In this document: positions 12,180 through 17,058 of the stretch, piece after piece | Position numbering within the stretch: the stretch's first letter is position 1 | Layout: every line of letters starts with the position of its first letter | Assembly: GCF_988243305.1 (NCBI RefSeq) | Contig: NZ_OZ547136.1 | DNA length: 64,000 nt | Strand: one strand, 5' to 3' | Notes under the pieces: model-generated | The model's input: only the letters and a program-made list of their open reading frames with translations | Told to the model about the DNA's origin: nothing | Databases searched by the model: none | Made by a program: the position numbers and the translations under genes

Positions 12180-12545
12180 ATGGCTGAGCTTCGTACACTC
12201 CAGAGCAGAATCAAAACACTGAATACCCGACGGGTGAATATTCTGAAGGGTGAACAGCGTCGTGTCAGTGGCAGTGCACGTGTTTCCCTCAAGCGTCATA
12301 TCTGGCTCAGGGACGCCGGGCAGTGCCGTCTCTGTGGTCGTGTGGTTGACCTCTGTGACAGTGAACTCGATCACCGAATTGCACTTCAGTTCGGTGGTGG
12401 TAATGAGGAGACGAATCTCTGGACGCTCTGTACCGAATGCCATCGACAAAAGTCTGCTCGTGAAGCGGCGAGTGATATGCCGGACCCGACGCTGCCGGAG
12501 GTGTCCGGAGGTAGTGGCAGAGAGGACGACATCATCGGACTGTAA
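12180..12545 (+). CDS. HNH endonuclease (terminase-associated)
   Basis: CxxC...DHRIALQFGG...N...CxxCH motif; immediately upstream of the terminase small subunit. Confidence 0.8.
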   Translation: MAELRTLQSRIKTLNTRRVNILKGEQRRVSGSARVSLKRHIWLRDAGQCRLCGRVVDLCDSELDHRIALQFGGGNEETNLWTLCTECHRQKSAREAASDMPDPTLPEVSGGSGREDDIIGL

Positions 12546-12639
12546 CCCGACCCCGGGGGGGTATCATCCGGCGTAAAAAACGATCGCTTTGGACACCGCG
12601 CCCCCTCTCACGCAGAGAAAAAATTCCCGTTTCAGGGCA

Positions 12640-12765
12640 GTTAACATGTTAACTGGCTGCCCGGGCATTTTTGCGGTTTTTATCTTTATTATTCAGTTTG
12701 TTGTGCGGAAAAAATGTTAACAGGCTTTTTCAGCAAATGTTAACCAGGCAGCAGTTAACATTTGC
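12640..12765 (+). repeat. Cluster of five GTTAAC-containing motifs upstream of terS (candidate cos/terminase recognition region)
   Basis: GTTAACATGTTAAC at 12640-12653, ATGTTAAC at 12714-12721 and 12737-12744, GTTAACAT at 12754-12761. Confidence 0.4.
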
Positions 12766-12835
12766 GGCATGAGACGCCGGGAAAAATGGGCTGAACCATA
12801 CCCGGCTGAGTGCGTTCTGGACCCGGGAGGAGGCT

Positions 12836-13399
12836 GTGCTGACAACGCAAAAACGAAAATTTGCGCTGGCGCTCATGTCCGGGAAAAACAAAACAGCGTC
12901 AGCCATTGCCGCCGGTTATTCGGCGAAGACCGCCAGGGTTAAAGGCTCGCAGCTGGCAAAAGATCCTGAGGTGCTTGCGTTTATAGCCCGTAAACAATGC
13001 GAGACGGTGGAGGTGGATGAGGTTCCTGTTTACCGGCAGAAAAAATCAGAGCAGGAGGATAAACCCCGTCGCCGTGAGGCGGCTGCAATACCACAGCCGG
13101 ACGAAAACAATCTGGAGATGCCACCGTCCGCGGTGATGTCTCCTGGTATTGAATATATGGAGGATGGTCTTCCCGATCCGGTGAAAGCCATGGGGCGGAT
13201 CCTGGTGGAAAACCTCTGCATTGATCCGAAACTGGCACTGGATGCGGCCTGGCGTCTGGCGCAGTTCACGCACCATAAAAAAGGGGATACCGGGAAAAAA
13301 TCGGCAAAAGGTGATGCCGCGAAAAAAGCGGCTAACCGTTTTGCGGTGCCACCGCCCCCCCGACTGGTGGTGAATAACGATAATGAGGGCAACGGATGA
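12836..13399 (+). CDS. Terminase small subunit (P27-family-like)
   Basis: N-terminal helix-turn-helix-like region (KRKFALALMSGKNKTASAIAAGYS); sits directly before the large terminase subunit with a 4-nt overlap. Confidence 0.7.
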   Translation: MLTTQKRKFALALMSGKNKTASAIAAGYSAKTARVKGSQLAKDPEVLAFIARKQCETVEVDEVPVYRQKKSEQEDKPRRREAAAIPQPDENNLEMPPSAVMSPGIEYMEDGLPDPVKAMGRILVENLCIDPKLALDAAWRLAQFTHHKKGDTGKKSAKGDAAKKAANRFAVPPPPRLVVNNDNEGNG

Positions 13400-15057
13400 T
13401 ACCTGTATGGAGCACAGCCTGCCCGGACTGGGCAGAGCGCCTGAAAAAGGGGCTGTCGATTATTCCGGATCCGATTTATCCGGACGAGGCCGCACATGCC
13501 CTGGCGATTTTTAAACAACTGCGGATTGTGGATGCACCTGGTAGCCCTACGTTCGGGGAGTCCTGTGCACCGTGGGTGTTTGACCTGGTGGCGGCCCTGT
13601 TTGGCTCCTACGATGCGCAGACCGGTGTACGCCATATCAAGGAAGTTTTTATCCTTATCCCCAAGAAAAACTCGAAGTCCACGCTGGCCGCGGGGATCAT
13701 GATGACTGCACTGTTACTGAACTGGCGGCAGGCGGCGGGTTACACGATTCTGGCCCCGACTGTGGAGGTGGCGGCCAACGCCTTCAACCCTGCCCGGGAT
13801 ATGGTACGACGTGACGATGATCTGGATGACCTCTGCCAGGTACAGACCCATATCCGGACCATCACCCACCGAGTGACGGACACCACCCTGAAGGTGGTGG
13901 CAGCCGATCCGAATACGGTGTCCGGTATCAAGTCCGTGGGTACGCTGATTGATGAGTTGTGGCTGTTTGGCAAGCAGTGCAAGGCGGAGGACATGTTACG
14001 TGAAGCCATAGGCGGCCTTGCCTCCCGCCCGGAAGGGTTTGTGGTGTATACGACCACCCAGTCGAATGAACCGCCCGCCGGGGTGTTCAGACAGAAACTG
14101 CAGTACGCCCGGGATGTGCGCGACGGCAAAATTCATGATCCGCACTTTCTGCCGGTGATATTTGAACACCCTCCTGAAATGGTGGAAAGCGGGGCTAACC
14201 TGCTGATGGAAAACCTCGCCATGGTCAATCCGAATCTCGGCTATTCAGTGGATGAGGCCTTTCTGTACCGGGAGTACCGTAAAGCCCGGGAAGCCGGTGA
14301 AGAGACATTCCGGGGGTTCATGTCAAAACACGCCAATGTGGAAATTGGTCTTGCCCTGCGCTCTGACCGCTGGGCGGGGGCTGATTTCTGGGAAGAGCAG
14401 GGCCGTTGTATCAGCCTGGACGATATCCTGCGTCGTGCTGATGTGGTGACGGTGGGGATTGACGGCGGAGGGCTGGATGATCTGCTGGGGATGTATGTGA
14501 TTGGGCGTGACCGGGAGACCCGCGAATGGCTGGGCTGGGGCCATGCCTGGGCGCATGAAACCGCGGTGGTCCGACGGAAGAGCGAGGCGTCCCGGTTTCA
14601 GGATCTTGTTGCCTGTGGAGATATGACCATTGTCCGGCGTGTCGGGGATGACACGGCGGAAGTGGCGGAATATGTGCGTCGCATTCATGAGGCTGAGTTA
14701 CTGGACCATATCGGTATTGACCCGTCAGGGGTGGGGCAGATTCTGGATTCACTGGCGGAAGCCGGGATCCCCGACGGAATTGTGGTGGGGATAAGCCAGG
14801 GCTGGAAACTGGGCGGGGCCATTAAAACCACCGAGCGCAAACTGGCTGAAGGGGTGCTGGTGCATGGTGACCAGCCCCTGATGGCCTGGTGTGTCGGCAA
14901 TGCCCGGGTGGAGCCTAAAGGTAACGCCATTCTTATCACCAAACAGGCCAGTGGACGGGGAAAAATTGACCCGCTGATGGCGCTGTTCAATGCGGTCTCC
15001 CTGATGTCCCTTAACCCGGAACCGAAAAAGAAAGAATATGCGGTTTTTTTCATATAA
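13396..15057 (+). CDS. Terminase large subunit
   Basis: 553 aa; Walker A-like ILIPKKNSKST; acidic C-terminal nuclease-like half; size and position. Confidence 0.85.
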   Translation: MIPVWSTACPDWAERLKKGLSIIPDPIYPDEAAHALAIFKQLRIVDAPGSPTFGESCAPWVFDLVAALFGSYDAQTGVRHIKEVFILIPKKNSKSTLAAGIMMTALLLNWRQAAGYTILAPTVEVAANAFNPARDMVRRDDDLDDLCQVQTHIRTITHRVTDTTLKVVAADPNTVSGIKSVGTLIDELWLFGKQCKAEDMLREAIGGLASRPEGFVVYTTTQSNEPPAGVFRQKLQYARDVRDGKIHDPHFLPVIFEHPPEMVESGANLLMENLAMVNPNLGYSVDEAFLYREYRKAREAGEETFRGFMSKHANVEIGLALRSDRWAGADFWEEQGRCISLDDILRRADVVTVGIDGGGLDDLLGMYVIGRDRETREWLGWGHAWAHETAVVRRKSEASRFQDLVACGDMTIVRRVGDDTAEVAEYVRRIHEAELLDHIGIDPSGVGQILDSLAEAGIPDGIVVGISQGWKLGGAIKTTERKLAEGVLVHGDQPLMAWCVGNARVEPKGNAILITKQASGRGKIDPLMALFNAVSLMSLNPEPKKKEYAVFFI

Positions 15058-15120: not shown

Positions 15121-17058
15121 GTGACTCTTAAACGGGCCTGTTCCCTGCTGACGGTGAAATCCTTCAGTGAGGATGAACGGGTGATCACCGGGATTGCGTC
15201 AACGCCTTCTCCGGATCGGGATGGTGACATCCTGGAGCCGGAGGGCGCGGAGTTTGGCAGTGCGATCCCGTTTCTCTGGCAGCATGACCATTCCCGCCCG
15301 GTGGGGCAGTGTACGGTGCGCCGGGTCAGCGAAGGGCTGGAAATCACGGCAACACTGGTGAAGCCCGTACCGGATATGCCGTCGCAACTGGCTGCCCGGC
15401 TGGATGAGGTCTGGGCGGCCATTAAGACCGGGCTGGTCAGGGGGCTGTCCGTGGGCTTCCGTCCCCATGAATACACCTTTCTGGACGGAGGCGGACTGCA
15501 TTTTCTGCGCTGGGAACTGATGGAGGTGTCTGCCGTCACCGTGCCCGCGAATGCGGAATGCACCATCCGGACCATTAAATCTTACGACCGCCCGTTTTCT
15601 GCCGCGTCCGGCAACCGGAAACCGGTGGTGAAAATCGCATCTTCTGCCGGCGCTGCGGCACAGTCAACAACCGTTTTTCATAAGGAAAAGACCATAATGA
15701 ATATTGGCGAACAGATTAAAAGTTTTGAAAACAAGCGTGCAGCGCTGGCAGCCTCCCTTGAGGAGGTCATGACCAAAGCCGCAGAGGAAGGGCGCACGCT
15801 GGATGTGGAGGAGGAAGAGCATTACGACAACACCGCAGCGGAAATCCGTCAGGTGGATGCGCACCTGAAGCGCCTGCGTGAACTGGAAGCCGGTAAGGCC
15901 GCCACGGCGCAGCCGGTGAAACAGGCCGGTAACGGGAATGTGGCCGCGGTGGCTTCTGCGCCGGTGATCCGTGTGGAGCAGAAACTGGATAAGGGGATTG
16001 GCTTCGCCCGCTTTGCCAAATCGCTGGCTGCGGCTAAAGGCGTCCGATCTGAAGCCCTGGAAGTGGCCCGTCGTCAGTATCCGGATGACAGTCGTCTGCA
16101 TCATGTCCTGAAATCGGCAGTGGGCGCGGGGACCACCACGGATCCGCAGTGGGCAGGCAGCCTGTCTGAATATCAGGAATACGCACAGGACTTTATTGAT
16201 TACCTGCGTCCGCAGACCATTATCGGGCGATTTGGTCAGGGCGGGATCCCTGCACTTCGTCAGGTGCCATTCAATATCCGTGTGCACGCCCAGGTGTCCG
16301 GCGGTGCTGCCGGCTGGGTGGGTGAGGGTAAGGCAAAACCCCTGACGAAGTTTGATTTTGAATCCATCACCTTCAGTCATGCGAAGGTGTCGGCCATTGC
16401 GGTACTGACGGAAGAATTGATCCGTTTTTCCAGTCCGGCTGCTGATGCACTGGTCCGTAATGCGCTGGCGGAAGCGGTGGTGGCGCGTCTGGATACAGAC
16501 TTTGTGGACCCGAAAAAAGCCGCAGTGGCAGATGTCTCCCCGGCGTCCATCACCCATGATGTGAAGGGCACGGCATCAACCGGTAACCCGGATGCGGATG
16601 CAGAGGCTGCGTTTGGACAGTTTGTGGCAGCAAACCTGCAGCCCACCGGTGCGGTCTGGCTGATGTCCAGCACCAATGCCCTGGCACTGTCCATGCGTAA
16701 AAATGCGCTGGGTCAGAAGGAATACCCGGACATGACCCTGCTGGGTGGCTCCTTCCAGGGGCTGCCGGTGATTGTCTCCCAGTACGTGGGTGACCAGCTG
16801 GTGCTGGTGAATGCCCCGGATATTTATCTGGCGGATGACGGCGGCGTGGCAGTGGATATGTCCCGCGAGGCATCACTGGAAATGCAGTCTGAGCCGACCG
16901 GCGACAGTACCACGCCGTCCCCGGTGGAGCTGGTTTCCATGTTCCAGACAGGCAGCGTGGCCATCCGTGCGGAGCGCTGGATCAACTGGCGTCGTCGCCG
17001 TACTGCGGCGGTGGCGGTGATCACCGGAGTGAACTACGGCAGTGCGTCCGGCGGCTGA
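15121..17058 (+). CDS. Prohead protease (HK97/S78 family) fused to scaffold-like region and major capsid protein
   Basis: N-terminus ITGIASTPSPDRDGDILEPEGAEF...PFLWQHD protease signature, central coiled-coil acidic segment, C-terminal HK97-fold capsid-like region. Confidence 0.75.
   Translation: MTLKRACSLLTVKSFSEDERVITGIASTPSPDRDGDILEPEGAEFGSAIPFLWQHDHSRPVGQCTVRRVSEGLEITATLVKPVPDMPSQLAARLDEVWAAIKTGLVRGLSVGFRPHEYTFLDGGGLHFLRWELMEVSAVTVPANAECTIRTIKSYDRPFSAASGNRKPVVKIASSAGAAAQSTTVFHKEKTIMNIGEQIKSFENKRAALAASLEEVMTKAAEEGRTLDVEEEEHYDNTAAEIRQVDAHLKRLRELEAGKAATAQPVKQAGNGNVAAVASAPVIRVEQKLDKGIGFARFAKSLAAAKGVRSEALEVARRQYPDDSRLHHVLKSAVGAGTTTDPQWAGSLSEYQEYAQDFIDYLRPQTIIGRFGQGGIPALRQVPFNIRVHAQVSGGAAGWVGEGKAKPLTKFDFESITFSHAKVSAIAVLTEELIRFSSPAADALVRNALAEAVVARLDTDFVDPKKAAVADVSPASITHDVKGTASTGNPDADAEAAFGQFVAANLQPTGAVWLMSSTNALALSMRKNALGQKEYPDMTLLGGSFQGLPVIVSQYVGDQLVLVNAPDIYLADDGGVAVDMSREASLEMQSEPTGDSTTPSPVELVSMFQTGSVAIRAERWINWRRRRTAAVAVITGVNYGSASGG

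Follow-up and report, generated by a model that had tools for sequence, protein, structure and literature searches.

The region at positions 12555–12761 of the DNA analysed here is probably a cos site, in which five GTTAAC-containing sites would form a cosB-like recognition array for the small terminase; judging from the comparison of sequences, we give this reading a probability of about 0.7. The window, i.e., the whole 64,000-nucleotide stretch that was analysed (contig NZ_OZ547136.1), is a lambdoid E. coli prophage belonging to the BP-4795/2851/Stx1a family. A cos carrying recognition repeats for the small terminase is a well-known kind of element, and the advance is incremental for this reason. 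The present cos site appears to be undescribed for a very common family of Stx-phage prophages. A packaging signal predicts which prophages and defective remnants remain packageable and which satellites ride on these prophages, and it provides a defined substrate with which to investigate how small terminases of the SF6 type can act site-specifically together with an HK97-type TerL and an HNH cutter.

Prophage and packaging genes

The cos region is 100% identical to that of strains such as NCCP15648 and 94–97% identical to that of the Stx phages BP-4795, 2851 and YYZ-2008, of the WGPS phages and of many Stx1a and Stx2c phages. The intergenic region was found in 1286 of 5426 complete E. coli genomes, with up to seven copies per genome, and many Stx1a, Stx2a and Stx2c prophages are among the carriers of the cos region.

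The packaging and head genes follow the order HNH, Terminase_2 TerS, HK97-type TerL, protease-capsid fusion and then portal (Table 1). The HNH gene ends 290 bp before terS and adjoins the cos directly upstream. The preliminary description of this DNA had placed the repeats between an HNH endonuclease and terS, with which the Pfam assignments (PF01844 and PF03592) agree. TerS matched PF03592 above the curated cut-off (E = 1.3e-8, residues 2–57), and the closest solved chains were SF6 small-terminase DNA-binding domains (4zc3, 2cmp and 3zqp), these being weak matches (E = 0.2–0.8); no similarity of TerS to HK97 gp1 was found (best E = 0.30). TerL gave a full-length BLASTP alignment with HK97 gp2 (23% identity over 489 aa, E = 2e-11). 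Because TerL aligns with HK97 gp2 while TerS resembles SF6 and not gp1, the packaging module is a hybrid, with an HK97-type cutter and its HNH partner on one side and an SF6/SPP1-type reader on the other.

Further downstream, one 645-aa ORF (nt 15121–17058; Peptidase_S78 and Phage_capsid) encodes prohead protease and major capsid protein as a fusion, which in the window occurs together with an HK97-type terminase and an 861-aa portal ORF. A protease-capsid fusion has been reported for Gifsy-2-type heads (PMC12315714).

Table 1. Position of the packaging genes and of the elements of the predicted cos site in the window.
Feature	Position	Strand	Basis and remarks
HNH endonuclease gene	12180–12545	+	Pfam HNH PF01844, E = 3.7e-8; annotated as HNH in BP-4795, 2851 and WGPS2
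Run of 7 G	12555–12561	+	28 nt upstream of the cos core; spacing kept in classes 1–3, satellite, Bcep176 and HK97
cos core, TGGACACCGCGCCCCCTCTCACGC	12590–12613	+	Invariant in the 76 unique variants from the pattern search
A-tract, AGAGAAAAAATTCCCG	12614–12629	+	Just right of the predicted nick; conserved in all classes, satellite and Bcep176
Palindrome CAGTTAACATGTTAACTG (sites 1 and 2)	12638–12655	.	Homologue of the relatives' terS ribosome-binding/start-codon region; invariant in 123 copies
T/A-rich spacer	12663–12713	.	T5 tracts 9 bp apart; differs between phage and satellite
Site 3, ATGTTAAC	12714–12721	+	Octamer search; kept in satellite and in 123 copies
Site 4, ATGTTAAC	12737–12744	+	Left arm of GCAAATGTTAAC-N9-GTTAACATTTGC; kept in satellite and in 123 copies
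Site 5, ATGTTAAC on the minus strand	12754–12761	-	Last position of phage-satellite homology
terS	12836–13399	+	GTG start; Shine-Dalgarno GGGAGGAGG at 12825–12833; Terminase_2, N-terminal helix-turn-helix
terL, HK97 type	13396–15057	+	PF03354 and PF20441

Five GTTAAC sites upstream of terS

Five of the 20 GTTAAC copies of the window, at 12640, 12648, 12716, 12739 and 12754, are grouped between the HNH gene and terS, and all five are embedded in ATGTTAAC/GTTAACAT octamers, accounting for five of the six such octamers of the window (1.58 expected). Site 1 occupies 12640–12647 on the minus strand and site 2 occupies 12646–12653 on the plus strand, the remaining three being listed in Table 1. The motif search thus confirmed what had been noted at the outset, namely five octamers in both orientations within 125 bp, the actual span being 122 bp (12640–12761). 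The doubled palindrome reported at the same time, GTTAACATGTTAAC, is also present and is indeed longer than described, as sites 1 and 2 together extend to a perfect palindrome of 18 bp. Sites 4 and 5 are arranged as GCAAATGTTAAC-N9-GTTAACATTTGC, and the extended site follows approximately the consensus AAATGTTAAC[T/A/C]G.

Such a cluster exceeds by a wide margin what chance would give: when the window was shuffled 300 times with dinucleotides preserved, the maximum number of GTTAAC per 125 bp was three, seen once, and in 5000 shuffles of the HNH–terS intergenic region alone the count never exceeded two. The spacer between the palindrome and site 3 is possibly bendable DNA. No IHF consensus was detected, no match to WATCAANNNNTTR with one mismatch or fewer being present in 12540–12840.

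Core and predicted cohesive ends

Upstream of the repeats, the run of G keeps its distance from the core while the sequence of the 28 nt lying in between is not conserved; our guess is that it acts as a cosQ-like element or as a contact for HNH or TerL. In the PPompW prophage (LC567822.1; locus L001, 2546–4004), ISEc20 (IS110 family) ends inside this run, at about window position 12558, and upstream of it tRNA genes and Q are found, not lysis genes and HNH. This prophage has lost the HNH gene and part of the cos, and the same arrangement was seen in at least seven PPompW records.

Cohesive ends of 10 nt are commonly deposited as a terminal repeat at both ends of a record. The record of Burkholderia phage Bcep176, read in the direction of terS, begins and ends with the same 10 nt, CGCACGTTCC, and its junction can be aligned without gaps to the window over the core, the A-tract and the dyad, with a score that none of 2000 shuffles reached. 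Because the terminal repeat of Bcep176 aligns at 12597–12606, the cut was placed there, predicting a 10-nt 3′ cohesive end, CGCGCCCCCT. The deposited Burkholderia phage records start at three different, nearby positions, and we therefore rate the nick as probable to within a few bases, and not as established. The centre of the dyad is 40 bp from the predicted nick in the window vs 43 bp in Bcep176.

The ends of HK97 are known experimentally to be 10-nt 3′ overhangs (PMC9410871). The HK97 record ends with ATGAC/CGCCGCCAAA and restarts with GTTTGAATTT (the slash marks the nick), and both its left junction, GAC/CGC, and its upstream G-run are in the register of the window. The DNA similarity between HK97 and the window is however not significant alone, as 216 of 2000 shuffles scored as well, and it was rejected as an independent proof of the nick. 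A weak but independent support comes from the IMG/VR contig 2681813226_000009 (L169, 10.7 kb), which begins with TCTCACGCAGAG, corresponding to window position 12606, 1 nt from the predicted top-strand nick; this start may be due to a genuine end of the DNA in the culture that was sequenced, or to a break or artefact of the assembly. When contig ends were used as a stand-in for virion ends, none fell on the left side of the nick. No deposited phage record begins or ends at this cos, all 94 matching records carrying it internally, and the phi330 record was opened inside terS. A literature search retrieved no published mapped virion ends for this phage family: the Sakai prophage paper treats the lambda-type cos only, and the phi330 and Stx-phage papers give no termini.

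A candidate cos and terminase-binding region had been proposed for the whole interval 12590–12830. The predicted cut indeed falls inside this interval, where it would adjoin the repeats instead of lying within them.

Conservation of the repeats among relatives

Relatives were collected from IMG/VR by a pattern search with the conserved block left of the repeats, TGGACACCGCNCCCCCTCTCA, which gave 123 matches and 76 unique variants that can be sorted into three groups, called classes 1–3 here. The E. coli type (class 1) has five octamers, its terS beginning 246 nt after the core. In class 2, which includes Salmonella phage FSL SP-016, the HNH–terS gap is short and GT[A/T]AAC[A/G]TGTTAAC contains the terS start codon, which is located 56 nt from the core start, with a GGAGGG Shine-Dalgarno sequence directly before it; a further GT[A/C/T]AAC copy is located about 20 nt left of the core. 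This left copy reads GTAAACAT, GTCAACG or GTTAACC (e.g., locus L004, 2540–2550), so that in this class the sites flank the cut. At the corresponding position the window (12572–12580) has GTAAAAAAC, which looks like a decayed copy. Class 3 (low-GC; loci L013 and L036) has a different TerS N-terminus (MALTEK...), and the GTTAA-containing AAAGTTAAAG replaces GTTAAC, in two or three copies between core and terS (two in L013 and L036, where the stretch considered runs from the core to about +330) and in two more inside terS. The occurrence of an altered repeat together with an altered TerS N-terminus, within this single lineage, points to TerS as the putative reader.

In the window palindrome the ATG comes 56 nt behind the start of the core, just as in class 2, and for this reason the palindrome is the homologue of the ribosome-binding and start region of the relatives' terS; in the window it has lost the Shine-Dalgarno sequence, and terS starts 190 bp further on. 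A 43-aa ORF listed at 12589–12720 (24 codons from ATG 12646) encodes a hydrophobic peptide. As a gene it was discarded, being not conserved and interrupted in the satellite by a stop after four codons, and it is best read as a stranded former terS start.

The constraint on the motif is also visible in coding sequence. Codons 2 and 3 are fixed in the 52 unique class-2 terS genes: TTA, which makes up 1.6% of the remaining Leu codons, stands at codon 2 in 52 of 52, and ACA, which makes up 21% of the remaining Thr codons, stands at codon 3 in 52 of 52, with the neighbouring codons varying synonymously. The terS of the window, no longer next to the dyad, has CTG as its second codon. A preference for A/U-rich codons just behind the initiation codon may be responsible for some of this constancy of TTA. 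In the Burkholderia phages of the Bcep176 group, whose TerS is 36–38% identical to that of the window, a GTTAA dyad, TGTTAAtggctTTAACA, surrounds the terS ATG, and TTAAC within the Leu-Thr codons has an inverted TGTTAA partner. The GC-rich Burkholderia phages have the same TTA in terS though their terL uses no TTA.

Relatives with an approximately 70% identical TerS have the dyad and one upstream copy only, and five sites are therefore not required by this TerS family. As regards motif conservation in relatives, which had been suggested as a check, the dyad is common to relatives with a similar TerS, and the three extra copies are confined to the E. coli lineage and the satellite. Within these the array is stable, as all five octamers are kept in each of 123 fetched class-1 and satellite copies (34 unique sequences), with spacing shifts of at most 2 nt.

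A probable satellite, without terminase, carrying the array

In E. coli CH427 (NZ_CM166357.1, 639961–649400) a 9.5-kb PICI-like island is located between yljB (yljB/cspD) and clpS. It encodes an integrase, AlpA, an Icd-like protein, a RepA/AAA_25 helicase, a protease-capsid fusion and a 93-aa protein, and no HNH, terS or terL was found in it. The island ends with the G-run, the core, the A-tract and all five octamers (cos copy at 2460–2680 of locus L003), after which clpS follows, and its cos type is present in 49 of the 5426 complete E. coli genomes (CH427 and 48 others). The island is probably a satellite of this prophage family. A capsid gene related to that of the helper, as Ccm in SaPIbov5, was considered and rejected, the capsid of the island having no BLASTP similarity to that of the window.

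BLAST against more than 1000 phage copies showed that homology between island and phage begins at the core and stops right after site 5. From the A-tract to site 5, satellite and window are identical at 38 of 38 motif positions vs 64 of 97 other positions (Fisher p = 3e-6), suggesting that an element that must borrow its helper's terminase has kept exactly the repeat bases, under selection.

Proposed mechanism and alternative explanations

Retention in the satellite, the fixed codons 2–3 of class 2 and the constant 56-nt offset support a role of the repeats at the DNA level, as a selected cis-acting packaging signal. The preliminary reading of a packaging signal thus stands, on the basis of satellite, copy and codon conservation, as far as cis action is concerned; the small terminase, which was part of the same proposal, is the putative binder. 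In the model we favour, the HK97-type TerL, helped by the adjacent HNH protein, would make staggered nicks in the conserved core and leave the predicted 10-nt 3′ end at 12597–12606. The five AAATGTTAAC sites would serve as the cosB-like recognition array, consisting of the dyad, the A/T-rich spacer and three more sites in mixed orientation, and the N-terminal helix-turn-helix domains of a ring-shaped Terminase_2 TerS would each contact one GTTAA-containing site. By these contacts the DNA may be bent or wrapped and TerL positioned on the core, which could serve both initiation and, at the next cos, arrest and cutting. A point against this model is the title of reference 12 in PMC11331095, which reports little sequence specificity in DNA binding by the SF6-type helix-turn-helix.

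Conservation shows constraint and does not name a protein, and the sites might be genuine cis-acting cos elements bound by the HNH protein, by TerL or by a host DNA-bending accessory factor instead of TerS. From class to class, the genes for HNH and TerL show as much conservation as that for TerS, and the equally conserved A-tract at 12614–12629 could be the true TerS site, considering that in HK97 this site is much nearer the nick, at +15 to +29 (PMC11331095). The HK97 geometry need not apply, however, to a TerS whose family differs from gp1, and we consider this explanation unlikely, as the only sequence-reading helix-turn-helix of the module is in TerS and class 3 combines a deviating N-terminus of TerS with a repeat of its own. 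IHF is the accessory factor acting at I1 of lambda; a host bending protein of this sort is disfavoured by the lack of an IHF consensus in 12540–12840. A second possibility is that the sites are mainly an operator, with TerS or another regulator binding the dyad over the terS start and with the extra E. coli copies as operator repeats. Such a role is plausible for class 2, where the dyad overlaps the region from the Shine-Dalgarno sequence to the ATG of terS and where autoregulation could coexist with a role in packaging. Also in favour of an operator, one weak promoter-like match, made up of the motifs, was seen on the minus strand. For the array as a whole we judge it quite improbable: the window dyad, though 190 bp from the terS start and devoid of a Shine-Dalgarno sequence, does not vary and has kept its distance from the core, and in the satellite all five sites are retained although neither terS nor another gene comes after them before clpS.

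The octamer corresponds to the first three codons of the relatives' terS (ATG TTA ACA, Met-Leu-Thr), and site 3 matches AAACATGTTAACAGG of class-2 terS (1 in 500 shuffles), so that the repeats might be neutral leftovers of duplicated terS 5′-end fragments. Duplication of the terS 5′ end may or may not be how the extra sites arose, but that they are without function we regard as very improbable: the similarity to the terS 5′ end stops at the motif and a few flanking bases, the motif is fully conserved in a satellite devoid of terS vs 66% for the spacers, and none of the five octamers has been lost in 123 copies. Least credible of all is that the region acts as RNA, for instance as a structured leader or a terminator in the late transcript. 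Although the palindromes could form hairpins, Rfam gave no match at E ≤ 1, the fold z-score was −1.35 with 20 of 200 shuffles folding as well, no terminator-like site was found in the region and the sites occur in both orientations. Across the relatives no compensatory base changes keeping a helix were seen, the motif positions never varying.

Within the preferred reading, that of a terminase recognition array, a wider scenario may be put forward tentatively, though we would not bet on all of its parts holding together. The terS start codon would lie inside the TerS dyad in a broad range of HNH-type cos phages, from Burkholderia to enterics; the E. coli Stx-phage lineage would have uncoupled the two, terS having moved by 190 bp, and enlarged the array to five sites, which the terminase-less satellite would then have copied. 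If this is true, genome recognition and terS expression are physically coupled in the wider group, and the system is a hybrid, with an HK97-type cutter and an SF6-type reader, whose rules of signal recognition can be read from natural variation.

Comparison with known systems

In lambda, cosB consists of the gpNu1 sites R3, R2 and R1 with I1, in the order R3-I1-R2-R1, next to cosN, and the ends are 12-nt 5′ overhangs. The window resembles this arrangement in having several copies of an asymmetric site, in both orientations, between the nick and the terS start, with a possibly bendable spacer; the five sites (12640–12761) lie between the predicted nick at 12606/7 and the terS start at 12836. 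In both cases the presumed reader is the N-terminal helix-turn-helix of the small terminase, and the site can be copied by satellites. Unlike lambda, the TerS of the window belongs to Terminase_2 (PF03592) and not to Nu1, the TerL is of the HK97 type with an HNH partner, no IHF site was found between the repeats, the ends are predicted to be 10-nt 3′ overhangs, and the five sites include a perfect dyad.

The HK97 cos is served by the HNH protein gp74, TerL gp2 and TerS gp1, with the TerS site 15–29 bp right of the nick (PMC11331095, PMC9410871) and with an essential A/T tract right of the nick (PMC11331095). It shares with the window the order HNH-cos-terS-terL, a homologous TerL, the upstream G-run, GAC/CGC at the left nick in the same register, and the A/T tract right of the nick. 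In contrast, the TerS of the window is unrelated to gp1; in HK97 a single site of 15 bp is recognised by an "arginine clamp" and GTTAAC repeats are absent; and the DNA similarity is weak outside the G-run.

SPP1 has a pacL/pacR layout, with short repeated boxes on both sides of the cut. The G1P of SPP1/SF6 belongs to the same Pfam family as the TerS of the window and has the N-terminal helix-turn-helix, and the class-2 relatives, with a copy left of the core and the dyad right of it, are reminiscent of that layout. SPP1 and SF6 package by headful from pac. The window, in contrast, has a cos-type TerL and HNH, and its core has a homologue in a phage whose record has termini of the cohesive-end type, which argues against headful packaging here.

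Bcep176 and its relatives (Stanholtvirus) have a TerS that is 36–38% identical, and an HNH gene at the other genome end, and their cos core, A-tract and GTTAA dyad TGTTAAtggctTTAACA around the terS ATG are homologous to those of the window. They differ in having a single dyad that overlaps the start codon and in lacking the 190-bp extension with three extra sites.

Satellites that carry the cos of their helper are known from SaPIbov5 (PMC5052747) and EcCICFT073 (PMC6092414). The CH427 island is like them in having int, AlpA, a replicase, a capsid gene and a cos copy, and no terminase. EcCICFT073 uses a lambda-type cosN with a cosB of its own (PMC6092414), whereas in the CH427 island core and complete repeat array alike are copies from an HNH-type phage.

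The window thus lacks some defining features of both the lambda and the HK97 types, its TerS being neither Nu1 nor gp1 and an IHF site being absent. Its closest counterpart in function is the lambda cosB, and in gene module the HK97 cos.
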